Source: Hormiphora californensis
Taxonomy: Eukaryota > Animalia > Ctenophora
Direction of reading: 5' to 3'
Assembly: GCA_020137815.1 (NCBI GenBank)
Contig: CM035362.1
Coordinates: forward strand, 6,138,001 to 6,202,000
DNA: 64,000 nucleotides
The notes beneath the pieces were generated by a model. The model had not been told where the DNA came from, did not search any database, and was given only the letters and a program-made list of their open reading frames with translations. The position numbers were made by a program, and so were the translations under genes. The first letter of the stretch is position 1; each line of letters starts with the position of its first letter. This document shows, one piece after another, positions 8,982-57,876 of this stretch.

Positions 8982-9032
<51 letters not shown>

Positions 9033-12170: not shown

Positions 12171-12268
12171 TTGCTCTGTAGAAGTCAGATGCTGTGTCAC
12201 CACTGTATAAAAACTTGATGTGCTCCACAACATCACCACCCCACGTTGTAACACAGTCGCTACGTGAA
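12171..12268 (-). pseudogene. 3' fragment of the variable-domain exon (unit A)
   Basis: SRSDCVTTWGGDVVEHIKFLYSGDTASDFYRA|gtaag; the upstream part is replaced by unrelated sequence. Confidence 0.85.
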
Positions 12269-12573
12269 TATCAATCATTAAAATAGAACATGATGAGGAC
12301 TAGAGACTGAAGACACAGGAGTGAAATGAATATTCATCCCTAATAAATAAAGACAAATGATAGTGACCGATGACAATATGAGTAGCTCACAACCACTAAC
12401 CATACAGCAACCACTAACATAATCTGACACAGACATGACAAACATTGGCACAGACAACGGACTGACAGCAAACAGACAATCTGACAGACGAACAAACAAA
12501 CGACATGACAAACGAACAAACACACGATCATACAGATGAGAAGGCTGCTTTTGACAAGCACCACAAGTGCACA

Positions 12574-13790
12574 GAGGGAGGGGTAGACAGCATATAATAT
12601 CAAGATAGTGGAACACAGATAAATTTACAGTGAGCCATGGGAGAGAAAGTTGGAGTTGGGTACACATAAAGCAACGGAGAGAAAAAGTTTGAGTAACTAA
12701 AACAAAGTTAGTATTCGGTGAAATTTAGATCAAAGTATTGATATCGCAACTGAACCGCCAATGGCAGATCCTAGCTTAAATATATATATAGTTGCCTAAT
12801 ATAGTGGAAGAAGATTCCATTGTTGTTTTTCCAGTCCATTCTAGTTGCTACTCATCAACCCAGTTAGTATATAATAGATATAAGCAAGGTAAACGAGAGA
12901 TAGAAAGGGGATAGAGAGAGGGAGAGTGAGAGAGATTGATTGAGAGAGGTATGAAATTGAAACGTGAATGGTTGCTCGACTGCAGTATGGGAAGAAAATA
13001 TTGTATCCCATTATTTTCCCCATCCCCATGCTACTCAACAAGCCGGTTCTAAGAATAGTAAAAGAAGCTCGTACGTGATCTATACTTTCCGGCTTCCGCT
13101 ACTCAAGCCTAGATTGGAAGTGCTTGGAAGATAGCCTAGCTGGAAACGTACTGTTTGTATTACTATTATATGGTACAGTCGGACCCCGATTTAGTGGCCC
13201 CCGATTTATTGGCAGGATTTTTTCCCCGCCCGGGTGAAGGCCGAAGGCCTTCACCCGGATGCCTTTTGCAAAAAGGCATACGGGGTTTATAAATCTAAAC
13301 GGATATAGTAACTATGTGTAGCAAGTCAACTCTCTTATCCCGTTTCTGGTTGCGAGGGGCAGCATGTAGCAACTAGAGCCGTGCACACAACAACAACCTG
13401 CTCCTTCATAAACCACTTCATTGACACGTTTTCAGGAGATATGTGGTGCGCATTGCGCAATTCCGCAATGTGGCGCGCAATTTAGTGCTACTAAAACAGA
13501 AGGATTTGTTCTATACTGTTTGCGTTCGATGTATAAATGATCCGAAATGTCTGTCCCGCCTTCGTGTTAGAAATGAAACGTTGGCGGGGAAACATAGCAT
13601 TATGAAACATAATGTATTTATTCTTGTTTTCCCCCAAAAATTTTTTGAATTTTTTTGTGAAATTTTTTTGAACATTTTTCAAAGGAATACCAGCCACGTC
13701 CGAATCGTGTTTCGAATCGGTGCATCTTATCGCATGCCCTGCTGCTTATTAGACGGTTCGAAACGAACAGATATGTGATCCCCATAAGGC
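12574..13790. repeat. ~1.2-kb segment directly duplicated at ~15492-16690
   Basis: Near-identical sequence, including the same MITE left end (13176 and 16096). Confidence 0.9.
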
Positions 13791-14457
13791 CCATCGAATC
13801 GCAATTTTGACGCTTGTGAAACTGGCCTCATGGGGATCACGTATCGGTTCGTTTCGAACCGTCTAATTAGCGACAGGACGTGCGATAAGATGCACTGATT
13901 CGAAACACGATTCGGACGTGGTTGATATACCTTTGAAAAATTTTCATAACTTTTTTTGCAAAATTTTACAGAATGATTGTCAATGCTTTGATCGGTGCTC
14001 CCCATGAATTTTCAGAGAAAAATATATTTTGAAATTCAAATTCTTCCTCACCCCGATTCCTCACCCCGATTCCTCACCCCGATTCCTCACCCCGATTCCT
14101 CACCCCGATTCGGCATGGTATCACGTATCGGTTCGTCTAATTAGCAGCAAGACATGCGATAAGATGCACTGATTCGATAAACGATTCGGACGTGGTTGAT
14201 ATATGTAGTACCTTAGAAAATTTTTATAACTTATTTTGAAATTATTTTGAAATTACTTTGTTTTTCTAATCAGAAATGGTCATATAATCAATACATGGAC
14301 ATTGCATTTAAAACTTAGAGGTGTTTTAGTATAGCATTTTGGACAAAAATAGGGTTTTATGGGCCAAATACGCTCTACCCCGATTTAACGGACACCCCGA
14401 TTTAACGGACAAAACCCTTTCCCCCGATCAGGGTGCCGTTAAATCGGGGTACGACTG
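13176..14457. mobile_element. Non-autonomous Tc1/mariner-type element (TIR CAGTCGGACCCCGATTTA, TA flanks); partial copies at 15268-15372 and 16096-17801
   Basis: ta|CAGTCGGACCCCGATTTA ... TAAATCGGGGTACGACTG|ta; no transposase ORF. Confidence 0.85.
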
Positions 14458-14546
14458 TAACACCAAATCATGTGATCCAATTCAACCCCATGGCCCATGT
14501 TGTGCAGTTACACTAAAAGTGGTATGAATCAAATTGAGACCCTTAC

Positions 14547-15124
14547 CTGCTCTGTAGTAGTCCGATGCTGTGTCACTAGAGTAAAACCTGATCGCCTCCA
14601 CAACATCACCACCCCACTTAGTAACACAGCTGCTCTTTGAACTATCTGTGAACAGGTAGTTCAGCACCTCCACATTGTTACATGTGATGATGATGCCGGT
14701 CGTTGTTTTGGTGATTGTCCAGATCTTATCCACCTCAGCCGGGGGTTGCACTGGCAGGTCTATGTAGTTGGTACAGTAGCCTATCCCATACTGCATTGGG
14801 GAGGAGAACTTCACATACACATAAGTGATATAGCCGCTGTCCTTGTCGGACATATGCACACTGATCGTCTCATCACTGCTCAGTGCAGAGTCCGTCTTTA
14901 TCTGGAGTGGTGTTGTCCTCCAGGTCCCAGGGTATTAGAACATCATTCCGCTCTACAACTGTCCAGTCTGAAACACGTCAACAATATAAATACCCGCCAT
15001 AATAATCACCCTACTGAGCCGGGCAGCCCGCTAATTGAGTATGAGACTGACTATAACCTGTAAGAACAGCTGCAGTTCCCCACAATGTAGCTGTGAAGAG
15101 AAGGAGACGCATCATACCTATCAT
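14547..15124 (-). pseudogene. Unit B: signal-peptide exon 15058-15124 plus variable-domain exon 14547-14967 (421 nt, +1 frameshift near 14912; real or consensus error)
   Basis: MIGMMRLLLFTATLWGTAAVLT|gt; ag|DWTVVERNDVLIPWDLE...DTASDYYRA|gt. Could splice to the sushi exon at 11781. Confidence 0.8.
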
Positions 15125-16742
15125 TCAAAGGCCGGTAAGTAGTTTATATTAATTACTTATCCGTTAACAGATTATCAACTAATTATCGACTAATTATCAA
15201 CTAACAATATGCTTCAACATCAATTACCAAATTAACAACTAACTAAATAACCGGGTGAAGGTATAACAGTCGGACCCCGATTTAGTGGCACCCCGATTTA
15301 GTGGCAGGATTTTTTTCCCCCAAAAATTTTTTGAATTTTTTTGTGAAATTTTTTTGAACATTTTTCAAAGGTATATATTATAATTACAAGAGGGGGTCGA
15401 GAGGGGAGACATGTTTTGTTGGAAAGGATGTAAACTGGATTCAATCACAGAGATTGCCCCCCCTGTTTAAAGTGAACTCTGGGGGAGTGGGAGAGGGAGG
15501 GGTAGACAGCATATAATATCAAGATAGTGGAACACAGATAAATTTACAGTGAGCCATGGGAGAGAAAGTTGGAGTTGGGTACACATAAAGCAACGGAGAG
15601 AAAAAGTTTGAGTAACTAAAACAAAGTTAGTATTCGGTGAAATTTAGATCAAAGTATTGATATCGCAACTGAACCGCCAATGGCAGATCCTAGCTTAAAT
15701 ATATATATAGTTGCCTAATATAGTGGAAGAAGATTCCATTGTTGTTTTTCCAGTCCATTCTAGTTGCTACTCATCAACCCAGTTAGTATATAATAGATAT
15801 AAGCAAGGTAAACGAGAGATAGAAAGGGGATAGAGAGATCAGGGAGAGTGAGAGAGATTGATTGAGAGAGGTATGAAATTGAAACGTGAATGGTTGCTTG
15901 ACTGCAGTATGGGAAGAAAATATTGTATCCCATTATTTTCCCCATCCTCATGCTACTCAACAACCCGGTTCTAAGAATAGTAAAAGAAGCTCGTACGTGA
16001 TCTATACTTTCCGGCTTCCGCTACTCAAGCCTAGATTGGAAGTGCTTGGAAGATAGCCTAGCTGGAAACGTACTGTTTGTATTACATATATGGTACAGTC
16101 GGACCCCGATTTAGTGGCAGGATTTTTTTCCCCGCCCGGGTGAAGGCCGAAGGCCTTCACCCGGATGCCTTTTGCAAAAAGGCATACGGGGTTTATAAAT
16201 CTAAACGGATATAGTAACTATGTGTAGCAACTAGCAAGTCAGCTCTCTTATCCCGTTTCTGGTTGCGAGGGGCAGCATGTAGCAACTAGAGCCGCGCACA
16301 CAACAACAACCTGCTCCTTCATAAACCACTTCATTGACACGTTTTCAGGAGATATGTGGCGCGCAATTCCGCAATGTGGCGCGCAATTTAATGCTACTAA
16401 AACAGAAGGATTTGTTCTATACTGTTTGCGTGATGTATAAATGATCCGAAATGTCTGTCCCGCCTTCGTGTTAGAAATGAAACGTTGGCGGGGAAACATA
16501 GCATTATGAAACATAATGTATTTATTCTTGTTTTCCCCCAAAAATTTTTTGAATTTTTTTGTGAAATTTTTTTGAACATTTTTCAAAGGAATACCAGCCA
16601 CGTCCGAATCGTGTTTCGAATCGGTGCATCTTATCGCATGCCCTGCTGCTTATTAGACGGTTTGGAACGAACAGAAACGTGATCCCCATCGAATCGAAAT
16701 TTTGACGCTTGGTAAACATGTGATTTAATGGCCCCATCTAAT

Positions 16743-18852: not shown

Positions 18853-29416
<10,564 letters not shown>

Positions 29417-29690: not shown

Positions 29691-30754
29691 ACTAGCTGAA
29701 TAACCGGGTGAAGGTATTCACCTAACTATCTACAATTAACAAAACAAATCCGAATTTATACCATTCATCTCACACAACAATTCTCTCTCTCACTTTATCA
29801 TTCTCTCTAAGCAACAAAGTCACGTGGCTATATTCAATATTCCTACTCTTCTAAAATATTGGCCCAAATACTTTCCGCCCAATATCTCTCCATAACTAAA
29901 GTAACAAATAAATAATATCGAATCTCGAGATTCGATATTATTTATTTGTTACTTTAGTTATAGAGAGATATTGGGCGGAAAGTATTTGGGCTAATATTTT
30001 AGAAGAGTAGGAATATCTCCCTAAGAATCAGTAAATATTTGTATCCTCCTAACTCACTCTCAACCATCATAAGATCAGCAAATACCTATGACCTAATTAA
30101 CTCTCAGTCACTCTGAGAGAGAAACAATGTAGGAACACAAGGAACCTATTATAAACTCGTGTGCCCTACAGTTTTAGATTGGCTGGAGATTGGTATGAGA
30201 TTAGTTGGAGATTAGTTAGAGATTGGCTGGAGATTGGTTGGAGATTAGTTGGAGATTGGTTGGAGATTGGTTGGAGATTGGTTGGAGATTGGTTGGAGAT
30301 TGGTTGAAGATTAGTTGGAGATTGGTTGGAGATTGGTTGGAGATTGGTATGATCAGATTAGTTGGAGATTAGTTAGAGATTGGTTGGAGATTGGTTGGAG
30401 ATTAGTTGGAGATTGGTATGATCAGATTAGTTGGAGATTAGTTAGAGATTGGTTGGAGATTGGTTGGAGATTAGTTGGAGATTGGTATGATCAGATTAGT
30501 TGGAGATTGGTTTGAGATTGGTTGGAGATTGGTTGGATACTGGTTGGATATTGGTTGGATACTGGTTGGATATTGGTTGGAGATTGGTTGGATATTGGTT
30601 GGAAATTGGTTGGAGATTGTTTGGAGATTGGTTGGAGATTGGTTGGAGATTGGTTGGAGATTGGTTGGAGATTGGTTGGAGATTGGCTGGAGATTGGTTG
30701 GAGATTGTTTGGAGATTGGTTGGAGATTGGCTGGAGATTGGTTGGAGATTGGTT

Positions 30755-32530
30755 GTATCATACCTATCATTTAAAGGGCGGTAAGTAGTTTATAGTAATT
30801 ACTTATCCGTTAACAGATTATCAGCTAATTATCAACTACTGTAAAACTAGATATTTTCGTGAGATTTTTATTTTCGCTCTTTATTTTTGGCTGGAAAATC
30901 CGCGAAAATTAATTCCGCGAAAATATTTTGGACGATTTTTTACAGAAAGCTCGTGCAAGTTATTTCAGGATGACACATTTTTTACTTTTAGTACTAAGTC
31001 AACGACAATCGGTTCATAAGATCAGAAATCTCTTAGAGCCAATCAGCAATGAGAAAATGCTCACATTTCATTGGTCTACGCCAAGCAGGTCTGGTGTCTC
31101 ATGGCAATGATGACTGCACTCTTGGCGTAATTAGACAATAGACTAGGACCGTGAAATGGGGGTAGCAGTGGGATTAGCGAAAATTAAAATCGCGAAAATA
31201 GTAAATTTTGATCGAATCGCGGAAATTAATTGCCTCGAAAATATCTAGTTTTACAGTAATTATCAACTAATTATCGACTAATTATCAACTAATTATCAAC
31301 TAATTATCAACCCAATTATCAACCCAATTATCGACTAATTATCGACTAATTATCGACTAATTATCAACTAATTATCAACTAATTATCAACCCAATTATCA
31401 ACTAAGTATCAACTAATTATCAACTAATTATCAACTAATTATCAACTAATTATCAACTAATTACATGCTTCAACATCAACTAGCTGAATAACCAGGTGAA
31501 GGTATTCATCTAACTATCTACAATTAACAAAACAAATCCGAATTTATACCATTCATCTCACACAACAATTCTCTCTCACTTTATCATTCTCTCTAAGCAA
31601 CAAAGTCACGTGGCTATATTCAATATTCCTACTCTTCTAAAATATTGGCCCAAATACTTCAAAATGCTTCAAATGCTTCAAAGAAATCGGAATTTATACC
31701 ATTCATCTCATACAACAAAATTCTCTCTCAGCAATAAAGTCACGTGGCATTCCTTTGGCGTGACGTGCCCAAGGCATTCCTACTCTTCAAAAATATTGGC
31801 CACGTGTAATATCTCTCCATAGCTAAAGTAACAAATAAATGATATCGATTCTCCCCGAAAGAATTAGTAAATATTTGTATCCTCCTAACTCACTCTCAAC
31901 CATCATAAGATCATCAAATACCTATCCTGAATAACTCTCAGCTACTCTGAGAGAGAAATAATGTAGCAACACGAGGAACTTATTATAATATAGATAACCC
32001 CGGCTAGTGCAGGGATGAAATTTGATAACCCCCGACGCAGGAGGGGGTTATCACTATTTCTCCACGAGGGAGCGAAGCGACCGAGGGGAAGAACGTGTGA
32101 TAAACAATGTAGAACGTGTGATAAACAATGTAGGAACACGAGGAACCTAACACGTGTGCCCTAGAGTTTGAGATTGGTTGGAATTGGAGATTGGTTGGAG
32201 ATTGGTTGGATATTGGTTGGAGATTGGTTGGAGATTGGTTGGAGATTGGTTGGATATTGGTTGGAGATTGGTTGGGGATTGGTTGGATATTGGCTAGAGA
32301 TTGGTAGGAGATTGGTTGGAGATTGGTTGGAGATTGAATGGAGATTGGTTGGAGATTGGTTGGAGATTGGTTGGAGATTGGTTGGAGATTGGTTGGAGAT
32401 TGGTTGGAGATTAGTTAGAGATTGGTTGGAGATTGGTTGGAGATTGGTTGGAGATTGGTTGGAGATTGGTTGGAGATTGGTTGGAGATTGGTTGGAGATT
32501 GGTTGGAGATTGGAGAAACCATAATTTACA
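30755..32530 (-). pseudogene. Promoter-only relic of a cluster unit (first codons MIGMI fused to the GGAGATTGGTT array)
   Basis: gtatcatacctatcat...gtaagtagtttatagtaattacttatccgttaacag matches 29401-29462; the gene body is absent. Confidence 0.75.
30839..31256. mobile_element. Tc1/mariner-type MITE, TA TSD
   Basis: ta|CTGTAAAACTAGATATTTTCG ... CGAAAATATCTAGTTTTACAG|ta. Confidence 0.9.
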
Positions 32531-32552
32531 AAATACTCTGAAATAAATGAAG

Positions 32553-33255: not shown

Positions 33256-33951
33256 TTTCTTTTTTTTTTTTTTTGGCCTTTAATATAAATAGTGGTACAC
33301 ACACTAACAATGACAATAATAAATTAAACAAACGGGGTCAATAAATTATATAGAAAACAGATTTAGTCTATTTGGTAGATACTGTCATCACGACCGCTGC
33401 TGCCTTCTGCCCTCAATCGTCCACGGTGTCCCCTGATGGAAATGGTGACAGACCGAACCATAGCAAACGACAACCTTAGCCTAAGGTACCGGATACACTG
33501 ATCATATGAATATCCTGTTTTTGTAGCTTTTTTCTCTGCCAATTGCTTCAAAGTCTTATTAAATTCCCTTCCGAGGCCCCCCGTAGTTGACATAACCAAT
33601 GGGGTGAAAGCTGACTTTTCCACCTCAAGGACACGATGGAGGTAGGATGTTTTCTTCTCTCTCTCGTGTTTTTCATATGTCTTGGCGATAGTCTGGTTTG
33701 AGTTGGACGCTATCCTTGGATTGAAGATCCTTACGTCGAAATAGATATTGTCCATTCCAGACCAAAAGCCGCGACTACTGATGTCTAGTCTGGCGCCATC
33801 GGCTGTTATAGTTCCAGCCGGTAGATCCACCCCCCGAACATTTAGCAGATGGGGTTCGATCTTAGTGTCAATGCACACTTTATTCAGTTCATGACCAATG
33901 AGATCTCTCACGTTGTTGTGTCGGAAACAAACAAAACCTCCGAGTTTACAG
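33256..33951 (-). mobile_element. 5'-truncated CRE-clade non-LTR retrotransposon (restriction-like endonuclease end), poly(A) tail, 16-bp TSD ATTTTTTTGCAATAAC
   Basis: CKLGGF..RHNNVRD, ARLDISSRGFW, FDVRIFNP, HEREKK..Y, FTPLVMSTTGG; T-run at 33256-33274; TSD at 33240-33255 and 33952-33967. Confidence 0.9.
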
Positions 33952-34817
33952 ATTTTTTTGCAATAACCCCATAAACAAAACCTCCGAGTTTACAGATTTT
34001 TTTGCAATAACCCCATAAATCTCACCTTAGATTGTAAGTACTTCCACAGAGCCAACATGAAGAGCTCTGTTTTGATCAAAAAGCTGAAACAAATGAATGG
34101 GGGTTAGAATTCCATTTAATGGGTTTCGGGTCCTATTTTTAGTATTGCGCCCAGGCATTGGGACCCTGGGATGTAGTTTACACCCACCGATGCAGTGCAC
34201 TAATTGGGTGCTGGCCAGAAGATGACATAAACAAAGTTTAGGGACCAATATTAGATTGATCCCAAAACCCGGTTTATCTCAAGATCTGTACAGCCCCGGC
34301 AAAATGTACTGCATTGGTGAATGCCCTCACTCATCACAATAGTTTCGAGATCATTGGAAAATTTACAACAAGTCAACAATATTTGAATCATCGTGATACT
34401 CACTGCATACCCACCTATTGGAGGTGTGTGGAACTGTTCAGGATTTCCCATTTTTGATGTTACCATGTGTGTAACATGTGTGTAACATGTGTGTAAGCAG
34501 TTGTAACATGTGTATAACATGTAACATTGATATCTAAGTTATTTAGTTAATGAAATAAATTTCTTACTAACCTCAACCCAAAACCACCGACACCCCAACA
34601 GTTCAACCAATCAATCAATCATTCATTCATTCAATCAATCAATCAGGGATACAGGGTGGCGCATCAAGCTGCTAATAACACGTTAAGACGTTTATTAGGT
34701 TTTTCGTGCAGCCGACCCTCTCACCGTGTCAGGTTTAAATATTATTTACAAAAAATTGTGGGCAATTCCCATGTGCTGGTCATGTAAACACATAACTTTC
34801 AAATGCATTATACTTAC

Positions 34818-35997
34818 CTAAAATGCACTGTGGTACATCATTTGACCACGATCCATCCTGCTGACATATCAATGTTGCACTTCCAACAAGGTTATGGTTG
34901 GCAGCACACTCGATGGTGGCAGTTGTCCCTATTGAGGAAGCAGTCCAGCTCCCTTGTGTTGATCCTTCAATAGAAAATGCAGGACACTCTGGTGCTAAAT
35001 GGAAAGATCAAGGCGTGAGTTCTATTGCAGCGGGGATTGGAGAGTTACACATTGGTGCTCAGTTATCATAATGGATCAATATCAGGCTTGGGGTACCCAA
35101 TCTTTGTAAGGTTCTTTACCCAACAAACCAATTAACACCAACTCATGTGATCCAATCCAACCCCATAGCCCATGTTGTGCAGTTACACTAAAAGTGGTAT
35201 GAATTAAATTGAGACCCTTACCTGCTCTGTAGAAGTCAGATGCTGTGTCATAACTGTTAAAGTAGATCTTCTTCACAACATCACCACCCCACTTTGGAAC
35301 ACAGTTGCTATCTGAACTATCTGCGAACATGTAGTTCAGCACTTCCACATTGTTACATTTGATGATGAGGGCGGTCTCTGGTTTGGTGATTGTCCAGATC
35401 TTATCCACATCCACCGGGGGTTGCACTGGCAGGTATGTCCAGCTGTTGGCGCAGTAGCTTATCACATACTGCATTGGGGAGGAGACCGTCACACGCACAT
35501 TACCGATCCCGCTGTCCTTGTCGTACATTTGCACAGCGATCCACTCATCACTGCCCAGTGCAGAGTCCGTCTTTATCTGGAGAGATGTTCCCTCCAGGTC
35601 CCAGGGTATGTTCACACCCCGCTGTACAGCTGTCCAGTCTGAAACACATCAACAATATTTTGATAGTCAATACCTGCCATAATAAACCCCAGCGGGATAT
35701 ATATTCCGCAATCCGCCCGCTATAAAAGCAAGGTTGTTTTTGCCGCTAAAGTTTATAATCAATAAATCCTTGTACAAACCCCTCACTTTGGTCGGGTCTT
35801 ATACCACATACCACCCTCCCTGCTTTTCAGGTCGGACAGTATATGGTATAGCGAACTAGCAAATCATATGGTAGCAAACTAGCGAGTCACCCTACTGGGC
35901 GGCCCGCTAGTTGAGTATGAGACTATTAGTCAGACTAACCTGTAAGAACAGCTGCAGCTGCCCATAATGCAGCTGTGAAGAGAAGGAGACGTATCAT
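34818..35997 (-). CDS. Unit D: SP exon 35940-35997, variable-domain exon 35222-35638, sushi exon 34818-34994; all intact; downstream exon unresolved
   Basis: GT-AG phase-1 junctions; MIRLLLFTAALWAAAAVLT-DWTAVQRGVNIPWDLE...DTASDFYRA-APECPAF...VPQCIL. Confidence 0.85.
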
Positions 35998-36863: not shown

Positions 36864-39800
36864 TTGGACCCACAACTTTGAACCCATATAGCGTCTTTCT
36901 AGACCATATTTGAAAGTTTTAACCCTTTAAGGACGAGAAGGATTGGCTCGATAGATTTTTCTAATTTTTCGTTTATAAGTAGATATTATTACCACAAACT
37001 ACCTCGAAAAGAAATTTGAAGTTTCGACATGTAGTTTTTGCTGGGCCCACTGTGTCATATATGACTCTATCGTCCGTAAGGGAATTCTAGTAACAAATGT
37101 AGTTGTGCAAAGTATGGGTCCAATAGCAAATTTTATGCTTTGAGGCAGTCTATAGCTATAATTTCTACAATCTTGAACGGTTTTTACTAGAAAAACCCCA
37201 AATTCTACATTTTGTATCATATATGACTCTATCGTCCCAATTGGTAAATTCTCCAAAAACATCATAACTCGGGCTAGAAAAGGAGCTAAGAGTCATCAGG
37301 GCATTAAACTGTGTAGAATCATCGCATTAGTGGGGGTAGAGCACATATTTAGGTCGCTATCTTGCCCCCTAATTGAGATAATTGGATAATTAGCCAATTA
37401 TCTGTCCCGCGCATGCTAATAAATGAAACTTTGCTTTGGGAAGGAGTTATGAGGCAAATGGGGGCACTAAAATGTGTAGAATCATCACATTAGTGGGGTT
37501 AGAGCACATATTGGTCTCTATCTGGACCCCTAATGAGATAATTGGATAATAGCTAATTAGGTGCCATCCAGCGCTAAAAAATAAATTTGGCGGAGTATAC
37601 AAGACAAATGGGGGCACTAAAATGTGTAAAATCGTCGCCTTAGTGGGGGGCAGAGCACATAGCTGAGTTTCTATTCCCGCTCCTAATTGAGATAATTGGT
37701 AATTAGCTAATTGACGGTTGCATAATGCCCCCTTTTCACCATATACCGTGGTTTCTGGCTAATCCTGAGCTTTTGTTCAATCTAAGGATCTTTCGGCATC
37801 CCTTTACCCCATTTATTCACCTTTGACCGTTTTACACAATAATATAGCACTCTAGATACAACCCAGACGCCGACTTCAGCTCTGTACAACTCCCTTGCTT
37901 CATCCTACTCCTAGCAGACCTCTCATACTAAACGCCTTCTACAGATCATCTTATTTCCGATGGAGTTATGAGAAGTTTCCTTAGTGCCAAATGAGATTGT
38001 GAGAGTGATGAGGAGAAATAATGTAGGGGGAATCTAAACTGTGTGTCCAATAATAAAATGGGAAACAGTAGTACATTAGGGGTTGAACGTCTTGTAGGAG
38101 CAATAGGATATCCCAAAAAATCGGTTAGGAAGGTGTATGGATCTCGAAATTATGAGAGGTCTAGGATAAGCAGATGGTTCTAAAGAGCTGAAGGCGGTGT
38201 CTAGGGTTGTGTGCTATATTAGTGTGTAAAACGAGTCAAAGGTGATACAAATGGGTAAAGGGATGCTAGAAGGGCCTTATATTGAACAAAAGAGCTCAGG
38301 ATTAGCCAGAAACCACGGTTTATGGTGAAAAGGGGGGCATTATGCAACCGTCAATTAGCTAATTATCCAATTATCTCAATTAGGAGCGGGAATAGAAACT
38401 CAGCTATGTGCTCTGCCTCTACTAAGGCGACGATTTTACGTATTTTAGTACCCCCAGTTGTCTTGTATACTCCGCCAAATTTGATTTTTTAGCGCTGGAT
38501 GGCAGCTAATTAGCTAATTATCCAATTATCTCAATTAGGGGTCCAGATAGAGACCTAAATATGTGCTCTAACCCCACTAATGTGATGATTCTACACATTT
38601 TAGTACCCCCATTTGCCTCATAACTCCTTCCCAAAGCAAGGTTTCATTATAGCATGCGGGGGACAGATAATTGGATATTTCCAATATCTCAATTAGGGGG
38701 CAAGATAGCGACCAAATATGTGCTCTACCCCCACTAATGCGATGATTTACACAGTTTAGTGCCCTGATTCGACTCTTAGCTCCTTTTCTAGCCCGAGTTA
38801 GGATGTTTTTGGAGAATTTACCAATTGGGACGATAGAGTCATATATGATACAAAATGTAGAATTTGGGGTATTTCTAGTAAAAACCGTTCAAGATTGTAG
38901 AAATTATAGCTATAGACTGCCTCAAAGCATAAAATTTGACTATTGGACCCATACTTTGCACAAATGACATTTGTTACTAGAATTCCCTTACGGACGATAG
39001 AGTCATATATGATACAGCGACTAAAACGTTAATAACTCATTCAATTTTCAATATTTTTTGATGCGGTTTTTTTGCATTCGTTTGTTATGTCAAGTAGTTT
39101 TATCCCTTCAAAGGATTATTTGTGCCCCTCAAAAACAAAAATTTGAGAGGGGTTTTTAAAAAAAGGCTTAAATTAGCCTCCGAGAAGGGCCATAAAAAAA
39201 TTTTTTCGATTTTCCGAGCTGATTTGGACGTGGTTTTGGGTTAAAAATCCCTAAAACTAGCTTGTGACAAAAAATTAGCAACCTAGACATCATGTAGCGC
39301 CTTCCAGACGGTCTAGAATGGACCGTGTCATATATGACCTATCGCCCTCAAAGGGTTAAATCGTTTCCAGGGTTGAACCATACATTTTTCTAGCATTTTG
39401 AGGTCGTTTTGAGCTTCTGAAGTTATCGACTTTGGAAAACAGGGCTAAAACAGTGCATTTGGTAGGCAAAATGGGTAGTTTAATGGCCATATCTCAAAAT
39501 TGGTACGAGTATAATTAAAATGGACTTGGAAAATGCAAGAAAAGTGGTATTTTACCCGGGGTAAGTTTCAGGGTGATGTTCCAAATTTTGTGCCTCTCAG
39601 AGGCCTTCAAAGTGCTGGGTCACCTGTGACCCAATCGTCCCCTAACGCTAAAAACGGAATTTGCATTTTACGAGCATTTCTAAAGGAATGGCCCCCGATA
39701 AAAGTCTAAAACGGCATTTTTTAAACAGTTGCTAGCGACTAACCGACTCTATCATTGTTATCTGAATCTTAGGTAGTCGATGAAAAAATTTTTGAGATCC

Positions 39801-40148: not shown

Positions 40149-40727
40149 TTATACCATTCATCTCATACAACAATTATTCTCTCTCACTTTCTCATTCTCT
40201 CTAAGCAACAAAGTCACGTGGCTATATTCAATATTTCTACTCTTCTAAAATATTAGCCCAAATACTTTCCGCCCAATATCTCTCCATAACTAAAGTAACA
40301 AATAAATAATATCGAATCTCCCCCAAAGAATTCCTAAATATCTATATCCTCCTAACTCACTCTCAACCATCATAAGATCATCAAATACCTATCATGACTA
40401 ACTCTCAGTCACCCTGAGAGAGAAACAATGTAGGAACACGAGGAACCTAACACGTGTGCCCTAGAGTTTTAGATTGGTTGGATATTGGTTGGAGATTGGT
40501 TGGAGATTAGTTGGAGATTGGTTGGAGATTGGGTAAAGATTGGTTGGAGATTAGTTCGGGATTGGTTGGAGATTGATTGGAGATTGGTTGGAAATTGGTT
40601 GGTGATTGGTTCGAGATTGGTTGGAGATTGGTTGGAGATTGGTTGGAGATTGGTTGGAGATTGGTTGGAGATTGGAGAAACCATAATTTACAAAAGACTC
40701 TGAAACAAAAACATATATGTACTACAT

Positions 40728-43890: not shown

Positions 43891-44053
43891 TCACAACGGC
43901 CTAGTCTGTCTCCTTATTTACTCATTTTCTCGAGCTCTCTCTTTATGAACTTGAATGTATTGTGAAAACTTGAAAACATTTACTTGTGTACTAACTTTGT
44001 GCATAGCATGTGTCCGATCAACTTGATTGGGATCAATGTCCCCATTTGTGATA

Positions 44054-44186
44054 CAGCCGTGCCTCTACTCACCGGCCACCGATCTACCGGAAACCTTATC
44101 GATACAGGGAATCAAATATATTTTACTCCGGTGTACCGGTACCCCGATTCACCGCAAAATTTTCTCGTTAAACCGGAGTCCGACTG
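44054..44186. mobile_element. Short decayed Tc1/mariner-type MITE
   Basis: ta|CAGCCGTGCCTC ... GGAGTCCGACTG|ta. Confidence 0.6.
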
Positions 44187-47607: not shown

Positions 47608-49394
47608 TTCTAGATTGTATTTTTGTTAATTTATCTATTTCTAGGCGAACTTGTGTTCGCTAACTGTTAAAATAAAGCGGAAGATTGTACTGTATTCTAT
47701 AAACGTTGCAAAGACTGGTTTAATCAAATAAATTGATGATATGATGTAAATTAAAATGCGATATGTTGTCCTAATTGTAGTCTCTTGTTGATTCAATTTT
47801 AATAATATGTATACACATACATTCAAGCTTACTTAACATGATAAGGCTTGCTTAATTAAATATGAAGTCTAATAATTATTTAAAGCAATTCAATTTTGTT
47901 ATAATCACTTAACAAGTCGTTCCTAACAAGTCTAGTAAATACACACAGAAAATATACATGTTCTTCCGTCATGTTTTTGTCTCTCTCTCTCTCCCTCTCT
48001 TTCCTTCTCTCTCTCTCTTGAAATAATACCATCTCTATTTACACCACAATTACCGTCATTTCTGATCATACTCGCAGCTTCAATTTCTTTACAATTACAA
48101 TACCCAAGCCACGTGACTCGTGAGCCATTTCCTTGTTTAACTATGCCTTTCATTCGCCATGTCTTATTTTTTTTTTTTGCCCAAATGCTAATACTACCAT
48201 TTCCCCGTTGCCCTTCCTCTACCATATGGCCACGGCAGTCGTAATAATTCTCTATTTTCACCCATCAGATTGGCACCAATCAACTGACTTGTATATTACT
48301 TTGACTTTATTTTACTATTTCTTTTTACTACACCTTTTTTAACCTCTTATTATATGTCCTCTACCTATGCTTATTCACATAACTTCTAATTATTCAATTT
48401 GACTAATTTTTAAATAGCTCACTTCCCTTTAACTTCCTTAATTCTATGTAATCTAGAGCTACTATCCTACTATGTAATTTTATGTAATTGCCTTTTCTTC
48501 CCGCAATGTCATTATCTATTTTCGCCTGTTTGCTATTTTCTACTCTGATCTATATGGTTTGTGTTACAAATATCTTGCCATCTAGAATGGATATGATGTT
48601 ACTATGATTCCCTCCCCATGATCTCCAACTACTATTCAACATTTCAAGGACATCTTTTCAACTAAAATTCCCGACAATTTGTAACTAACTTTCATCGCTT
48701 ATCGCATTTATCAACAACGTTCTTCAATCTTAGTAGTATAGTGCGGACAGTTGGGACCTATTTTAGCCTCCTAAGCGAGCCACCATTTTGTATGTGCATG
48801 TCACGTGACTTCTAATTACCAAAATTATGCGGCGCTGGCAAGAGTTGTTCATTAGAATATTGGGAGCGCCGGCAAGGGCCTTGGAATTTATTTTGGCGCT
48901 GACAAGGGCCCACATTCGCGATTGGGATTTCTGTATGATGTCAATTTTTGTTTGGGATTTCTGTGTGATCTCACCCCTATCACATTACACTCCTGCCACA
49001 ATGCATATAACTTTCTCTCTCTTTTCTCGTGCTGGTGTTCTGATACAAATAATAGAATACTCCAGAGTTCCCCCAATATTCATCTAATGTTCTTTTGTTA
49101 TTCTTATCGTTCTTTTGGTATTCCAGTGACTTTTCATTAGAAAGGAACGAGCCGGGAACGGTGAAAATTACAAAAGAACAGCATCGGAACGGTTTTTTGT
49201 TAGATAAGAAAAGTTGGAAAATACAAAAGAACAGTGGAAATTAGAACGGAACAACAGCGGAACGACGGCGGAACAGTAAAATGTTGCAAAATGTTTCGTA
49301 AACGAAAACATAACAACTTTGTGTCTATAAACAAATTAAGAGACAGGTTTTTCTCGAGACAAATTAATGAATAAATAAAATGCTAGCAGTTATA

Positions 49395-49832
49395 TCAAAA
49401 TTGAATCTTCATTATATCAAATCTAATGCAGACCACAGCTTCGACTTTCCATGCTGTAGATGGGCGTGAACTCCTTGCTATTTCTAGCAGATCTTCCCGT
49501 TCTATATTTTCTTTTACTTTTTTCACGTCTTCTCGCCCAGAAATTAATTGAGCAGTCTCAAAAACCATTGTATTATTAGAAGGGTGATAAAATTTAACTT
49601 CACCAGTAAGTTTGTTTGTCATAAAAAATCCGAATGCGACATTCAGTTTTATATCATTCTGATAGTTTTCCAAGACTTTATCTAGTTTACCAAAAATTCC
49701 ATCAGTGGGTGACAGTGGAAAATGATAAATATCTTTTAGTTTGCCTTTTGTAGTACGCTGACGAATAGTTGACCAATTTTTCCGGTACAACTCCCAAAAC
49801 TTGACGGGCACAGTATCTAGAAACGCGTCCAT
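49395..49832 (-). CDS. 145-aa protein resembling the N-terminal (pre-exonuclease, putative terminal-protein) region of Polinton pPolB
   Basis: LYRKNWSTIR, KLNVAFGF..N..TGEVKFYHPSNN, DLLEIARSSRPSTAWKV; ATG start, stop, TATATAAA ~45 nt upstream. Confidence 0.7.
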   Translation of the reverse strand: MDAFLDTVPVKFWELYRKNWSTIRQRTTKGKLKDIYHFPLSPTDGIFGKLDKVLENYQNDIKLNVAFGFFMTNKLTGEVKFYHPSNNTMVFETAQLISGREDVKKVKENIEREDLLEIARSSRPSTAWKVEAVVCIRFDIMKIQF

Positions 49833-50224
49833 GATTCTTATGGTAGCAATTATGCATAATTATGGTAACACCGGTTTATATAGCCAAAGATATGTTCTAC
49901 TTCAATTATCGACGGGTCATAGCACTGTTATTCCCAGTGTTCTTTTGGTATTCCAGTGACTTTTCATGAGAAAGGAACGAGACGGGAACAGTGAAAACTA
50001 CAAAAGAACAGCAACGGAATGTTTTTTTCGTTAGAAAGGAAAAGTTGGAAAATACAAAAGAACAGTGGATATTAGAACGGAACAACAGCGGAACGACAGC
50101 GGAACAGTGAAATATTGTAAACTGTTGCAAAATGTTTGATTCACTGGAACAATAAAACCTACTTTGTTTTTGGTTTGTAAAACAAATAAAAAGACCTTTT
50201 TTCAAAAAAAAGAAATATAATTAA

Positions 50225-50971
50225 CTATACATTTAAACTTTCATTTTCTAAATCTCTTAAAAGCAACAGCGTTTTTTCAACAACTTGGAAAATATTTGCA
50301 AACTCTTTAGAATATTTTAAAAATAATTTTTTGATTTCTTCAACGCTCTTTTTGTCAACTAATTTAATCAATTTTCGTTCTTTTTCATTTAATCTCTTTC
50401 GCTGAAAAACAACAAGTGGAATTACACCATACTTTAGACCAGTACACAACGTTTTAATAGCTTGTAAAAGTTGGTTACTACGTGAAACCTTGACAAATTT
50501 CTTTGAAGCAAACAATCGACTGAGTTCTAGAAAGTCAGCAATATTTTTGGAGTTAATTATTGAATCGGAAAACTCGTTAAAGGTACTGTCCTTAAAATTT
50601 GTTATAAACTCATCGAGTTGCTTTTCAAATAACCGAATGCGACTCAAATGTTGTTTTGATTCCGTCAGCTTTGTTTTGTACAAACGTTCAAACTTGCGAG
50701 CGTGCTGATCTCGCACATGATACAATTCCTTGTAATTTAGTTCAGGCTTTTTCACAACTTTAGTAAGTGTTGATACTGTTGGTGAAGGGTTTTCCGAATC
50801 TTTATCGCTGATATCTGCAGAGGTGTCATCTATTGGATAATCCTCATCTATCTGTAGTTCTTTGGTATCCATACCTTCATTAATCGTAGGCTTTTTGTGG
50901 TAGAGGTCTTTATGTTCAAGGAGTTGATAAATGAAGGGGAACGATTGGTCACACAAGTCACAAGCTACCAT
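50225..50971 (-). CDS. 248-aa protein: N-terminal C2H2 zinc finger, coiled coil, basic helical C-terminal domain
   Basis: CDLCDQSF...LLEHKDLYH; TATATAAG ~30 nt upstream of the ATG. Confidence 0.8.
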   Translation of the reverse strand: MVACDLCDQSFPFIYQLLEHKDLYHKKPTINEGMDTKELQIDEDYPIDDTSADISDKDSENPSPTVSTLTKVVKKPELNYKELYHVRDQHARKFERLYKTKLTESKQHLSRIRLFEKQLDEFITNFKDSTFNEFSDSIINSKNIADFLELSRLFASKKFVKVSRSNQLLQAIKTLCTGLKYGVIPLVVFQRKRLNEKERKLIKLVDKKSVEEIKKLFLKYSKEFANIFQVVEKTLLLLRDLENESLNV

Positions 50972-51029
50972 TTGTAAAGAAATGAAGATAGTTGTCCCTT
51001 ATATACCCATGGCATGACATCGAAAGAAA

Positions 51030-51383
51030 CTAGTTACTGCAGTTAGGACATTTATTTTCATAGGTTTCCGGAAACAGCTTGTTCGTAATATTATCAAACA
51101 TTTCTGGGTTCTGGTTTAGCATTTCACGAATTTCAGTTAATGAGTTTGATTCCTTAATGGCGTCCACAAGAAGTTTCTCGCGATCTGTTAGATCAGCTTT
51201 GCTGATATCAGCGTCAATAAGATCGTGCTTGAAAGCAAAGCAGTGTAGCAAGCATTGGTATGTATTTTCTCGGTCCGAAGATTCGCTATCAGATTGAGAT
51301 ATATCTGAGTCAGATTCTGGATCTGAAATATCACCTAAGCCCATTTTCTTAGACGATTCGTGACGCGTAATAGATCTTGACAT
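51030..51383 (-). CDS. 117-aa protein (ATG 51383) with an acidic Ser/Asp tract and a helical domain related to the C-terminus of the 248-aa ORF
   Basis: TATAAAAA ~35 nt upstream; LTDREKLLV..IKESNSLTEIREML....EMFDNI. Confidence 0.7.
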   Translation of the reverse strand: MSRSITRHESSKKMGLGDISDPESDSDISQSDSESSDRENTYQCLLHCFAFKHDLIDADISKADLTDREKLLVDAIKESNSLTEIREMLNQNPEMFDNITNKLFPETYENKCPNCSN

Positions 51384-53979
51384 GACTAGAAATGAGTTGC
51401 ACGCAATAAGCAATCTCTTTTATAGTTCCGAACTACCTATTTTACTGTTCTGGTGCTGTTCCGGTGTTGTTCCAGTGTATCACAAACCGTTCCGTTGTTG
51501 TTCTTTTGTAATTTTCACTGTTTCCATTTCGTTCCTTTTTAATGAAAAGTCACCGGAACACAATAGAACACTACAAATGATAAAGTAACGACAAAATCAT
51601 TTTCAGAACACCTGTGTAAAAATACGTTTCCTAGTTTATGTGTATATACTGCATGTTTTCGTTTATGAAACATTTTGCAACATTTTACTGTTCCGCCGTC
51701 GTTCCGCTGTTGTTCCGTTCTAATTTCCACTGTTCTTTTGTATTTTCCAACTTTTCTTATCTAACAAAAAACCGTTCCGATGCTGTTCTTTTGTAATTTT
51801 CACCGTTCCCGGCTCGTTCCTTTCTAATGAAAAGTCACTGGAATACCAAAAGAACGATAAGAATAACAAAAGAACATTAGATGAATATTGGGGGAACTCT
51901 GGAGTATTCTATTATTTGTATCAGAACACCAGCACGAGAAAAGAGAGAGAAAGTTATATGCATTGTGGCAGGAGTGTAATGTGATAGGGTGAGATCACAC
52001 AGAAATCCCAAACAAAAATTGACATCATACAGAAATCCCAATCGCGAATGTGGGCCCTTGTCAGCGCCAAAATAAATTCCAAGGCCCTTGCCGGCGCTCC
52101 CGATATTCTAGTGAACAACTCTTGCCAGCGCCGCATAATTTTGGTGATCAGAAGTCACGTGACATGCACATACAAAATGGTGGGCCGCTTAGGAGGCTAA
52201 AATAGGTCCCAACTGTCCGCACTATACTACTAATCTTCATAAAGACCAACAGCTATGTTATGTGGTTCAAAAGTACCTTACTACAACATTGGAAAATATG
52301 AAAACGTCTGTAGGAACAACAAATTTACTCAGTCGGAGCTACTAATCATTTTCAGCATGAGAAACAAATCTACATCAGAAGGAGCCACTATTTTCTGTGT
52401 TTTTCACTGCAAGTGTGAATTGGAAAGCTATCAATTTATTGAGTATGTACTAAAGCTCAAAGCGATTATATTATTATGTGTATTGTTTTAGAGGTAAACT
52501 AAAAGGGTTAATAAACTAATTAAATGTTAAATCTAAAATTAATTTGTCTATTTTAATTTACTCTAGTTTTTAATCAAGGCTAACAAGTTAGTAAAAAAAA
52601 CTATACGATCACGACCTATTTTATTTCGGGACAAAGTGCTAAAATTTCATAGTTCTAATTAAAATACTATAGATCTGGGGATAATTTACCTACAATTATT
52701 GTACTTATAGTTTGACATACCGAATGTAGCGTAGTTCGTCGGTTTGAGTACGTCTCCACTGTCTCCTGGATGTTCCAATTCTTTATCTTTCCGTTGCGTC
52801 TTTTATCAGAACAGTTATCACCCTTCTATGTTTATCTCTCCACCAGACCAAAGTTTCGGGAGACCAGTCCACCAGACCAAAGTTCGGGAACCTTTGCGCT
52901 TACCAGCACAGTTACTTATAAAATTATTACTTTGATTTTAAAGCCTACTCTCAAAATTTTCCTCTATCCTAATTCCTCTATCTTAATTAACATTTTCTAC
53001 AAGCAATTCTCACTACGTCTAACTACTTACTAAAGTTCAAACACCGAAGCCACCATGTTGCAATGCTAGGTTTTGCGGGTTTAAGCGGGGTTTTAACGGT
53101 TAGCATTGCCTCACTAAAGTCACCTAGACAAAAGCGGTATTTCCAGTTTCGTGCATGAGCTAAGGCTCACCTCCTAATTGGTCTAAGTCTCAAAGTAATA
53201 CACCTCAATTTGGTATAGATAAGAAAGTAATGTATCATGTTCAAGTTCACTAATCATGCTTCTACACATCTCACATTCTAATGTCACTACACAACTAATT
53301 CTGTCTATATTGTCTCAGTCTATAAGTCTCAACTATCTCACTAATCTATCTACTCAACTCTACTCTACTCTACAGTTCACATATAGGTTTACGATGACTG
53401 ATAGGACATCTGCTTGGCAAACAATGCTTCGTAGTACATATATTATTGACATGGGGACATCTGCTTAGCATGGCTCGCTATGCTTACAGTTATGAGCTGA
53501 GCTGAATGCTGAAATGGTGTCCCTTTTATACTGCTCCGGACCAGGCTTATCTCATGATGATCTATTATTGACGTATTTCCTGGCTGTGGGCCATCTGTGT
53601 CTCGTGATTGTCCATTGACCTCCTTTGGCACCCTCTTATAGTTTCTCACTTTAGTTTATGTCTTTAGCTTCATCTCTCACGTCACGATGTGCTAACTAAC
53701 TGGCGGGTCATCATTCCATCATGTAATTGGCATGTCGCCAGGCAATTAAAAGTAATCAATTCGTTATGGTCGAATTCTGGGTTTGGTCCAGCACGTCACG
53801 GTATTGTAAGATGTAATCTAAATCACATGATCCTCGCACGACTATGTTCATTATCTCACGTAAGGGAACATCTCACGTTTGACTGTCATGTCTTTCCCTG
53901 GCCAGGTAATCACTGTGCCAACTTCCGGGTGTGATTGAATAATGGTTCAGTATAGGAATATGTAATATTCCAACATAGT

Positions 53980-55991
53980 TTCTCAGGGTTTTTGTAAACA
54001 GGTAACATAAATATGCAAATAACGGCTAAACGGTGCGAGATACGACTTTTTGTCCGGGGTACGACCCCCCATAAATCGACTATTCTACGTCGAAATATGT
54101 CCATGAAAACATTCTAGGACCAGCTGAAGTGGAAATATTCAGAATATGCATTAATCATGAATCAGTGCATAAATATGCAAATAACGGCTAAACGGTGCGA
54201 GATACGACTTTTTGTCCGGGGTACGACCCCCCATAAATCGACTATTCTACGTCGAAATATGTCCATGAAAACATTCTAGGACCAGCTGAAGTGGAAATAT
54301 TCAGAATATGCATTAAATCATGAATCAGTGCATAAATATGCATATAACGGCTAAACGGTGCGAGATACGACTTTTTGTCCGGGGGACGACCCCCCATAAA
54401 TCGACTCTTCTACGCCGAAATATGTCCATGAAAACGTTCTAGGACCATTTGAAGTGGAAATATTCAGAATATGCATTAAATCATGAATCTGCACATAAAT
54501 ATGCAAATAACGGCTAAACGGTGCGAGATACGACTTTTTGTCCGGGGGACGACCCCCCCCCCCCCCCATAAATCGACTATTCTACGTCGAAATATGTCCA
54601 TGAAAACATTCTAGGACCAGCTGAAGTGGAAATATTCAGAATATGCATTAAATCATGAATCAGTGCATAAATATGCATATAACGGCTAAACGGTGCGAAA
54701 TACGACTTTTTGTCCAGGGGACGACCCCCCATAAATCGACTCTTCTGCGTCGAAATATGTCCATGAAAACGTTCTAGGACCATCTGAAGTGGAAATATGT
54801 AGAATATGCATTAAATCATGAATCAGTGCATAAATATGCATATAACGGCTAAACGTGCGAGATACGACTTTTTGTCCGGGGGACGACCCCCCATAAATCG
54901 ACTCTTCTACGTCGAAATATGTCCATGAAAACGTTCTAGGACCATTTGAAGTGGAAATATTCAGAATATGCATTAAATCATGAATCTGCACATAAATATG
55001 CAAATAACGGCTAAACGGTGCGAGATACGACTTTTTTGTCCGGGGACGACCCCCCATAAATCGACTATTCTACGTCGAAATATGTCCATGAAAACATTCT
55101 AGGACCAGCTGAAGTGGAAATATTCAGAAATGCATTAAATCATGAATCAGTGCATAAATATGTATATAACGGCTAAACGGTGCGAGATACGACTTTTTGT
55201 CCGGGGGACGACCCCCCATAAATCGACTCTTCTGCGTCGAAATATGTCCATGAAAACGTTTCTAGGACCATCTGAAGTGGAAATATTCAGAATATGCATT
55301 AAATCATGAATCTGCGCATAAATATGCAAGTAACGGCTAAACGGTGCGAGATACACACTTTTTGTCCCGGGGACGACCCCCATAAATTGACTCTTCTGCG
55401 TCGAAATATGTCCTTTGAAATGTCCTTACAAAACCAAACCGAGATAATCATAAAATTATACATAAATTATGCATAATTAATGACTTCCCATGCTCAAATC
55501 AAAATTTTACATAGCCTACGACATGTAGAATAGTCCGATTTATGGGGGTCTTCCCCGGGCAAAAAGCTCTAAATCCAGCCGTTTTTTTGCTCAGTTTGGT
55601 TTGTAAAAGGTCGTGCGTATGTATGTATGTATGTATACAGAGCAAGCGTTTGGGACCCCCCTCGTAACTTTTGAACGAAACCATCGATCCACTTGAAATT
55701 TAAACACTATTAGATATCATTGAGGTAGCTTTACATACAAAATTTCAGCGTGCTAGCTTGTCGGAACATGGTTAAATAGACGCTCGAAAAGGGCGAAAGT
55801 CACATCCGTATGGTATACTGCACTGGCCCCGAATCGGGCGAAATTAAATTTTCCGCGCCTGAGTTTATCCTTTCAGATTTGATCTTATAATGTTCTAGGA
55901 TGACCTTAGAAGGGGTGGGATGGTTTTTCATTGCTGGGGGCTTTGCCCCCAGACCCCCATTAGGCCACGGGGCACTTGCCAGTGCAGTGAT
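53980..55991 (-). mobile_element. Probable non-autonomous Helitron/Helentron-type element carrying the satellite
   Basis: End sequence GCCAGTGCAGT (55978-55988) inverted ~160 bp inside (55817-55827), then (GTAT)n, then the tandem array; absent at the paralogous site near 10610. Confidence 0.5.
54007..55415. repeat. 163-bp tandem satellite, ~8.6 copies
   Basis: ATAACGGCTAAACGG recurs at 54019, 54181, 54344, 54507 and onward. Confidence 0.95.
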
Positions 55992-56843
55992 TATGAATGC
56001 TTCTGCATAACAAAATTGTTAATTTTTTGCAAGAAATCTCACCTTGTACTTCCAAAGAGCCAATATGAAGACTCTTCATTGACGACCTCTGTTTTGATCA
56101 AAAAGCTGAAACAAATGGATGGGGGTTAGAATTCCATTTAATGGGTTTCGGGTCCTATTTTTAGCATTGCGCCCAGGCATTGGGACCCTGGGTGTAGTTT
56201 ACACCCACCGATGCAGTACACTAATTGGGTGCTGGCCAGAAGATGACATAAACAAAGTTTAGGGACCAATATCAGATTGATCCCAAAACCCGGTTTTTCT
56301 CAAGATCTGTACAGCCCCGGCAAAATGTACTGCATTGGTGAATGCCCTCACTCATCACAATATAGTTTCGTAATCATTGGAAAATTTACAACAAGTCAAC
56401 AATATTTGAATCATCGTGATACTCACTGCATACCTACCTATTGGAGGTGTGTGGGAACTGTTCAGGATTTCCCATTTTTGATGTTACCATGTGTGTAACT
56501 ATGTGTGTAACATGTGTGTAAGCAATTGTAACATGTGTATAACATGTAACATTGATATCTAAGTTATTTAGTTAATGAAATAAATTTTTTACTAACCTCA
56601 ACCCATAATTCCCTCAACAGGTTAATCAATCATTCAATCATTCAATCATTCAATCAATCGATCAGGAATACAGATGACAGGGTGGCGCATTGAGCTGCTA
56701 ATAACACGTTAAAACGGTTATTAGGTCTTTCGTGCAGCCGACCCTCTCACCGTGTTCGGTTTAAATATTATTTACAAAAAATTGTGGGCAATTCCCATGT
56801 GCTGGTCATGTAAAAACATAAATTTCAAATGCATTATACTTAC

Positions 56844-57876
56844 CTAAAATGCACTGTGGTACATCACTTGACCATGTTCCATTATCCTGACAAGTCAGTG
56901 TTGCACTTCCCACAAGGCTATGGGTGGCAACACACTCGATGGTTACAGTTGTCCCTATTGGTGAGGCAGTCCAGCTTCCTTGTGTTGATCCTTCAAAAAA
57001 AATGCAGGACACTCTGGTGCTAAATGGAAATTGATCAAGGCGTGAGTTCGATTGCAGCGGGGATCGGAGAATTACACATTGGTGCTCAGTTATCATAATG
57101 GATCAATATCAGGCTTGGGGTACCCAATCTTTGTAGGGTTCTTTACCCAACAAACCAATTAACACCAACTCATGTGATCCGATCCAACCCCATGGCCCAT
57201 GTTGTAAAGTTACACTATTTTTAATACGTAGTATTAATTAAGTTAAAAGTTTATAGACCCTTACTTGCTCTGTAGAAGTCAGATGCTGTGTCCGAACTAC
57301 TGTGGAACGAGATCTGCTCCACGACATCACCACCCCACTTTGGAACACAGTCGCTACGTGAACTATCTGTGAACAGGTAGTTTACCACCTCCACATTATT
57401 ACATGTGATGATGAGGGCAGACTCTGTTTTGGTGATTGTCCAGATCTTATCCAACTCCAACGGGGGTTGCACTAGCAGGTCTGTGTCGCCGCCCATGCAG
57501 TAGCTTATATAAAACTGCATTAGAGAGGAGAACAACACATACACAGAACTGATAGAGCTGATGTCCTTGTCGTACATCCTCACATAGATCTTCTCATCAC
57601 TACCCAGTGCAGAGTCCGTCTTTATCTGGAGAGGGTGTTGCCTCCAGGTCCCAGGGTATACTCACAACCTGCTGTACAGCTATCGACAGTCTGAAACACG
57701 TCAACAGTATAAATACCCGCCATAATAAATCCCAGCGGGATTTATATGGTATAGCGAACTAGCGAATCACCCTACTGAGCTGGGCGGCCCGCTAGTTGAG
57801 TATGAGACTGACTATAACCTGTAAGAACAGCTGCAGTTCCCCACAATGTAGCTGTGAAGAGAAGGAGACGTATCAT
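56844..57876 (-). pseudogene. Unit E: SP exon 57819-57876, variable-domain exon 57265-57690 (small indels, early TAG), sushi exon 56844-57019 (1 nt short in an A-run)
   Basis: Homologous exons and splice sites; the lesions could be consensus errors. Confidence 0.8.

Follow-up and report, generated by a model that had tools for sequence, protein, structure and literature searches.

What lets a repeated protein domain keep its frame nearly unchanged while some of its residues differ in almost every copy, and what could such a domain be for? The question is raised by a stretch of 64,000 nucleotides from the comb jelly Hormiphora californensis (assembly GCA_020137815.1, contig CM035362.1, positions 6,138,001 to 6,202,000). 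This whole stretch is called the window below, and coordinates refer to it unless another contig is named. On its minus strand it carries five copies of a domain of 138 residues, in the order E (57.3-57.7 kb), B (35.2-35.6 kb), C (28.6-29.05 kb), D (14.5-15.0 kb) and A (12.2 kb). On balance, we consider it probable that these copies belong to a large ctenophore family as tandem paralogues, and that the proteins are likely secreted, with one face under positive selection that likely binds foreign surfaces, for instance glycans of microbes or parasites.

Fixed and variable positions of the domain

A preliminary description of this DNA had listed the copies as C, D, B, E and possibly A. All of them were found, although it overlooked the frameshifts in E and D and the fragmentary state of A. 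Each of the 17 variable segments it quoted occurs in exactly one copy. The invariant framework it proposed holds for LQIKTDS, DKIWTITK and CNNVEV in all four long copies and for TASD[FY]YRA in all five; PWDLE is out of frame with the rest of the domain in E and D because of the frameshifts there. The alternation of fixed and variable residues is also visible at the codon level: codons 33, 35, 37, 45, 48, 50, 60 and 124 are letter-identical in the four copies, and codons 32, 34, 36, 47, 49 and 125 differ mostly at their first two positions. The p-distances at the three codon positions are 0.67, 0.65 and 0.27 at the 11 most variable sites, versus 0.09, 0.05 and 0.11 at 87 conserved sites.

Site entropy was then calculated over 154 full-length domains from 149 proteins, plus C, with partial domains dropped. 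Variability is highest at sites 9, 32, 34, 36, 44, 47, 49, 59, 61, 65, 109, 111, 125, 127 and 129. Signatures built from nine of the variable sites are nearly all different, with 152 distinct ones among 154 domains, and aromatic residues make up 18.8% at the signature sites versus 12.3% overall.

Predicted fold and the position of the variable face

The AlphaFold2 model of the unit C domain, made with 100 sequences, has a predicted local distance difference test score of 94.7 and a predicted template modelling (TM) score of 0.87, and shows one helix and 11 strands that are at least three residues long. Every match listed by Foldseek is a galectin (best expectation value (E) 1.5e-4, TM score 0.56). 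In a VIA-align comparison with 48,161 chains, galectin-4C comes first, with Z 10.5, a root-mean-square deviation of 3.3 Å, 125 aligned residues and 9% identity. Taken together, the VIA comparisons give Z 10.5-10.7, 3.0-3.3 Å and 122-125 aligned residues, and the predicted model thus shows the galectin fold of about 130-140 residues, which bears out an earlier guess at a lectin or ConA-like fold. At the sequence level, no Pfam family covers the domain, PF00337 is unmatched among the 100 and 54 members scanned at E 0.1, and a sequence search of the PDB gives no match at E 10. The domain therefore looks galectin-like in its modelled fold and falls outside the galectins by sequence and motif. An atlas search by language-model features puts clusters of PF12248 first for the homologue P0033 and for part of P0151, with scores of 0.92 and 0.90 that serve as leads only; 153 and 126 of 256 features are shared, while true members typically share 170, and none of the 154 proteins scanned with the PF12248 hidden Markov model gives a match at E 0.1.

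The strands of galectins follow one another in the order S1-F2-S3-S4-S5-S6-F3-F4-F5-S2-F1. By this order the variable segments fall on S3, S4, S5/S6 and S2, and the invariant motifs on F2, F3, F4/F5 and F1. Covariation in 290 domains includes the pairs 20-82, 20-137, 10-126, 52-60 and 92-99, which fit galectin strand neighbours. The cysteines C63 and C112, invariant in the 154 domains plus C, are predicted to form a disulfide.

Mean entropy is 3.09 bits for the 15 outward sites of the S-sheet (S-out) against 0.94 for its inward sites (S-in) and 0.64 and 0.77 bits for the two faces of the F-sheet (p ~1e-5). Since the exposed face of the F-sheet is conserved, exposure alone does not explain the variability of the S-sheet. 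The preliminary description had read its every-other-residue pattern as one diversifying sheet surface, and had named scattered variable residues as the finding that would speak against it. By strand order and entropy, the variable residues do alternate on the S-sheet strands, both F-sheet faces are conserved, and the variation falls on one predicted sheet. The variable residues are predicted to line the concave S-sheet, where galectins hold their sugar. A separate observation is that the predicted outward F-sheet face (20, 22, 80, 82, 91, 93, 97, 99 and 101) is unusually conserved, and it could represent a surface for packing or for a fixed partner.

Positive selection on the variable face

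For the codon tests, the window set comprised four copies and 119 codons, with codons 1-18 and gapped codons dropped; contigs L008-L011 and the second copy on L006 were left out. The comparisons M1a/M2a, M7/M8 and M8a/M8 each give about 48 for twice the log-likelihood difference, with 47.6 for M8 against M8a, and M8 places about 21% of the sites at a ratio of nonsynonymous to synonymous rates (omega, or dN/dS) of about 12. Among the 16 sites above 0.9, none lies on F strands. With fixed classes, omega is 9.7 at S-out sites, 0.24 at S-in sites and 0.36 on F strands of the window copies, and it reaches 17 at 11 sites chosen by the entropy of the homologues. As a control, the sushi exon gives omega 0.53 and no selected class. 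Plain counting agrees, though on few synonymous sites: the proportion of nonsynonymous differences (pN) at S-out is 0.41-0.64, versus an overall proportion of synonymous differences (pS) of 0.07-0.21. Thus dN/dS at the variable sites, for which codon models had been proposed as the check, is about 10 (p ~1e-11), far above 1.

The signal remains significant with the intact copies B and C alone (p 8e-5). When double and triple changes are allowed, the window statistic drops from 47.6 to 15.4 (p 0.0005), and after this correction the signal is significant in all four data sets. In null simulations with segment-wise shuffled trees, none of 82 reached 47.6. The pattern is replicated in metagenome contigs that are 45-51% identical to C, where omega at S-out is 4.8 for L001-3 and 3.5 for L004-7 (p ~1e-5 each). 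This test and the entropy-defined class are the only ones largely independent of the window copies.

Several points weigh against this picture. The site models are home-written (GY94) with naive empirical Bayes assignment on two to four sequences, the S-out class was set after the entropy profile had been viewed, and seven of the 82 null simulations passed the 5% cut-off. Three of the 16 selected sites (109, 111 and 114) lie in a helical segment off the strands, and three of the five copies (E, D and A) are broken. As for the fold, identity to galectins is 3-17%, a GH32 glycosidase beta-sandwich (1uyp, Z 9.8) ties with the galectins within 1 Z, and the variable face was placed by strand order and by covariation, which is noisy with many top pairs unexplained. 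The galectin motif H-x-N-x-R is absent: H47 is found in 2, N49 in 4 and R51 in 20 of the 154 domains, and the motif occurs anywhere in only 2 of 154. These three positions, which by register take the place of the galectin H-N-R triad, are all among the variable sites, and with the motif absent, the suggestion of sugar binding comes from the fold. With these points considered, diversifying selection on one predicted face is well supported.

Likely exchange and turnover among the copies

The preliminary description had called the neighbouring introns and sushi exons highly similar. This applies to B and C but not between them and E and D, from which they differ by 16-22% in intron 1. Between B and C, the difference is 2.7% in intron 1, 4.4% in intron 2, 8.0% in the sushi exon and 14.0% in the domain. 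The two introns together differ at 18 of 521 sites, versus 11 of 81 synonymous domain sites (p 0.0006). From the upstream region through intron 1, all 19 informative sites pair B with C, while in the domain exon all three pairings of the copies are mixed, and 24 of 39 neighbouring informative sites support the same split (p 0.003). Such mosaicism is compatible with conversion, with an exchange of exons, or with convergence at the sites under selection. In a protein tree of 166 domains the window copies are not grouped and support is low, and we draw no inference from it. The broken copies E, D and A may be pseudogenes or assembly errors, the assembly of the window being noisy in places. Overall, many paralogues with turnover, intact and broken copies together, present the birth-and-death pattern of a diversified germline recognition family.

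Relatives of the domain

Protein searches return 29 longer and 165 near-length homologues, with identities of 50-74% among the 120 matches listed, and a profile search gives 1678 clusters at E 0.001. Names are known for few of the best 150, and all named relatives are from ctenophores (Pleurobrachia, Bolinopsis and Mnemiopsis), the more distant ones from Bolinopsis and Mnemiopsis. Ten carry the label 'putative secretory peptide' of Pleurobrachia bachei and others are 'sb' gene models. Because so few of the 1678 clusters have known names, confinement of the family to ctenophores is likely, though unproven. The relatives have one to five or more copies of the domain, fused to sushi, Ig, PAN, TSP1, tectonin or TNFR-like modules. 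Besides, one metagenome contig (L006, 620-1042 and 1197-1556) carries two tandem domain exons about 150 bases apart. A hydrophobic stretch past residue 35 is found in only 5 of 64 gene models, two of those being signal-peptide-like, and most family proteins are likely secreted rather than membrane-bound. One RNA run yielded only six short matches of 80-90% near the LQIKTDS stretch and is uninformative on the window genes. In the published literature covered, which mostly excludes subscription papers, no description turned up of the domain, of how it folds or of the selection acting on it.

Proposed function and alternatives

A fixed frame with one fast-changing selected surface suggests a large and varied set of sensors for foreign surfaces, and arms-race selection points to microbes or parasites as the selective agent. 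Immune pattern recognition is in our analysis the most likely role, with prey adhesion as its main rival. The product would consist of a signal peptide and one or more galectin-like beta-sandwich domains, usually with sushi repeats. On the fixed scaffold, the variable concave face would give each paralogue its own specificity, tandem domains and sushi stalks could provide multivalent binding, and birth-and-death duplication together with sequence exchange would maintain a germline repertoire against microbes or parasites.

Alternatively, the proteins could be components of the secretion of colloblasts, the glue cells of the tentacles, with the variable face allowing the glue to hold on to many kinds of prey surface; we regard this as possible but rather doubtful. 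Among the colloblast candidates of Mnemiopsis, signal peptides, genes specific to ctenophores, and annotations as sushi or lectin are overrepresented, and the supplement of that study holds 12 candidates of 243-326 residues with one Pfam sushi domain near the C-terminus and two with Pfam galectin domains (PMC6278862). Methyltransf_FA domains, the nearest language-model neighbours, are described in six sea-star adhesive proteins (PMC9382459). However, none of 294 retrieved proteins matches the 14 candidate digests tested, which is a weak test as few Mnemiopsis proteins were included, and three colloblast candidates that were inspected have weak sushi-like Gene3D matches before the sushi domain and may belong to another family. 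Moreover, for a general glue one would expect an omega of about 10 and frequent pseudogenes less than for an antagonistic arms race.

Recognition of gametes, or of self and non-self within the species, appears improbable to us. Proteins of gamete recognition and allorecognition do show positive selection localised on a surface. The introns of B and C are less divergent than their synonymous exon sites, a pattern familiar from balanced recognition loci, and B and C could be alleles set in tandem by the assembly. Yet the diversity is spread across dozens of paralogues and few gene models have a possible membrane anchor. Allorecognition is further weakened because fusion into chimeras, and hence reduced allorecognition, has been reported for Pleurobrachia, Bolinopsis and Mnemiopsis (PMC11565835).

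Least credible of all is the absence of selection, the pattern being caused instead by gene conversion, by mutations of several nucleotides at once, by errors of the assembly or by a loosened constraint on an exposed face: the noisy assembly with its broken copies, the mosaic sites and the multi-base changes, which absorb about two thirds of the statistic, would fit it, but the corrected signal holds in every data set, the intact copies alone suffice, the same site class is selected in the metagenome source, counted pN at S-out exceeds overall pS, and on the other sheet the exposed face has stayed conserved.

Structure of the locus

In units E, B, C and D, the domain exon is preceded in each case by a separate ATG and signal-peptide exon, and these four units hence represent separate tandem genes. 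A sushi exon follows the domain in E, B, C and A. Unit E consists of a signal-peptide exon (57819-57876, minus strand as all units here) with its ATG at 57876 and a phase-1 GT donor, a domain exon (57265-57690) with +2 and +1 insertions and a stop at its fourth codon, likely a pseudogene if not an assembly error, and a sushi exon (56844-57019) with a 1-base deletion. B and C are the only intact copies, their reading frame being open across leader, domain and sushi, and the 417 bases of their domain exon form a symmetric cassette of phase 1-1. Unit B has its signal-peptide exon at 35940-35997, domain exon at 35222-35638 and sushi exon at 34818-34994 (PF00084, E 7e-10). Unit C, the copy used for the structure model, has these exons at 29347-29407, 28634-29050 and 28233-28406 (PF00084, E 1e-09). 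In unit D, the signal-peptide exon (15058-15115) is followed by a domain exon (14547-14967) with a +1 insertion, and the unit ends about 90 bases past that exon, where homology to the other units is lost near 14458. Unit A is a remnant with the last 99 bases of a domain exon (12171-12269) and a sushi exon (11608-11781).

Past the first sushi exon of C, the sequence departs from the pattern of B, E and A and leads to a second sushi exon (27679-27849, PF00084, E 1.5e-06). About 7 kb beyond lie SRCR, SRCR-like, cysteine-rich TNFR/Eph-like and transmembrane exons (18853-20379, minus strand, borders approximate), phase-compatible with unit C, and at their tail two tyrosines are followed by an AG microsatellite. 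The splice phases would permit unit C to form the N-terminal part of a type I membrane protein with these exons. On the plus strand, the second sushi, SRCR and cysteine-rich exons recur at 5186-8851 in a degraded, inverted copy with many frameshifts, either a pseudogene or low-quality assembly, where the second sushi and the SRCR exon are no more than about 1.5 kb apart.

Two other arrangements were rejected. A Dscam-like array of mutually exclusive exons is not supported because the units, four of the five, carry their own ATG and leader exons, and an internal splice acceptor before IKTDS, as a rescue of D or E, mismatches the phase of the leader exon.

Other features of the window

The window also holds many repeats. 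G- or C-rich low complexity at 1-4000 and 60900-61700 resembles poor read ends or assembly filler. A dispersed minisatellite with a PISNQSPTNLQ-like reading occurs near several units (10250-10600, 30170-30760, 32120-32550 and 40400-40720), and at 54005-55426 a unit of about 163 bp is repeated in tandem with 92-94% identity. Two elements have long terminal inverted repeats: at 37050-39017 these are about 870 bp at 92%, and at 48730-52233 they are 582 bp at 98.6% and enclose open reading frames of 154, 257 and 129 residues with no clear Pfam match. Recent direct duplications are seen between 12573-13822 and 15492-16717 (95%) and between 21346-22126 and 25117-25897 (100%); the latter pair, possibly long terminal repeats, flanks gag-like open reading frames at 23515-25101. 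Fragments at 8799-9871 (plus strand) and 33363-33989 (minus strand) resemble the reverse transcriptase ends of non-LTR (long terminal repeat) retrotransposons.

Comparison with known systems

The analysis bears on the question of non-self recognition in ctenophores, the earliest-branching animals. An immune survey of Mnemiopsis used known Pfam domains only, and its main text is silent on galectins and positive selection (PMC11797021); the Mnemiopsis gene identifiers are absent from one supplement file of it. As the present family has no Pfam model, Pfam-based surveys cannot see it, and it offers a testable candidate of small domains with a mapped variable face. If the colloblast explanation were true, the family would point to an unknown ctenophore glue instead.

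The P. bachei 'putative secretory peptides' 26, 39, 40, 41, 43, 47, 51, 52, 54 and 55 belong to the same family, being 50-74% identical to C, and none is identical to a window copy. Their label suggests small signalling peptides, whereas here they are recast as proteins with a folded domain, predicted to bind. Since 72 high-confidence secretory peptides were counted in support of peptidergic signalling (PMC4685580), the ten entries would bear on that number, provided, as we infer, that the labels belong to that list. The Methyltransf_FA or FAMeT-like domain (PF12248), which occurs as a module in secreted, adhesive and immune proteins of invertebrates (PMC9382459, PMC12379375), is alike in length and the top language-model neighbour of two homologues, but the comb-jelly domain lacks a match to its model and shares features below the level of true members.

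The closest likeness is to the galectin carbohydrate recognition domain (PF00337; human galectin-4C 4ylz, galectin-10 and sponge galectin 4agg), with which it shares the predicted fold, about 138 residues, the strand order, tandem-domain forms, and the sugar-binding S-sheet as the position of the variable face. It differs in its low identity, its missing sequence matches and H-x-N-x-R motif, and in having a signal peptide, an invariant cysteine pair and sushi partners, and its predicted binding face is hypervariable while that of galectins is conserved. In the way it appears to diversify, the ctenophore family resembles the snail FREPs, amphioxus VCBPs, Hydractinia Alr and expanded C-type lectins, with tandem expansion, pseudogenes, sequence exchange and positive selection on one binding surface in common, the surface being a predicted one and the role in recognition a putative one in the ctenophore family. 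Diversified families of this kind are already known, and what appears to be new for them here is the scaffold, a galectin-like sandwich, and the lineage.

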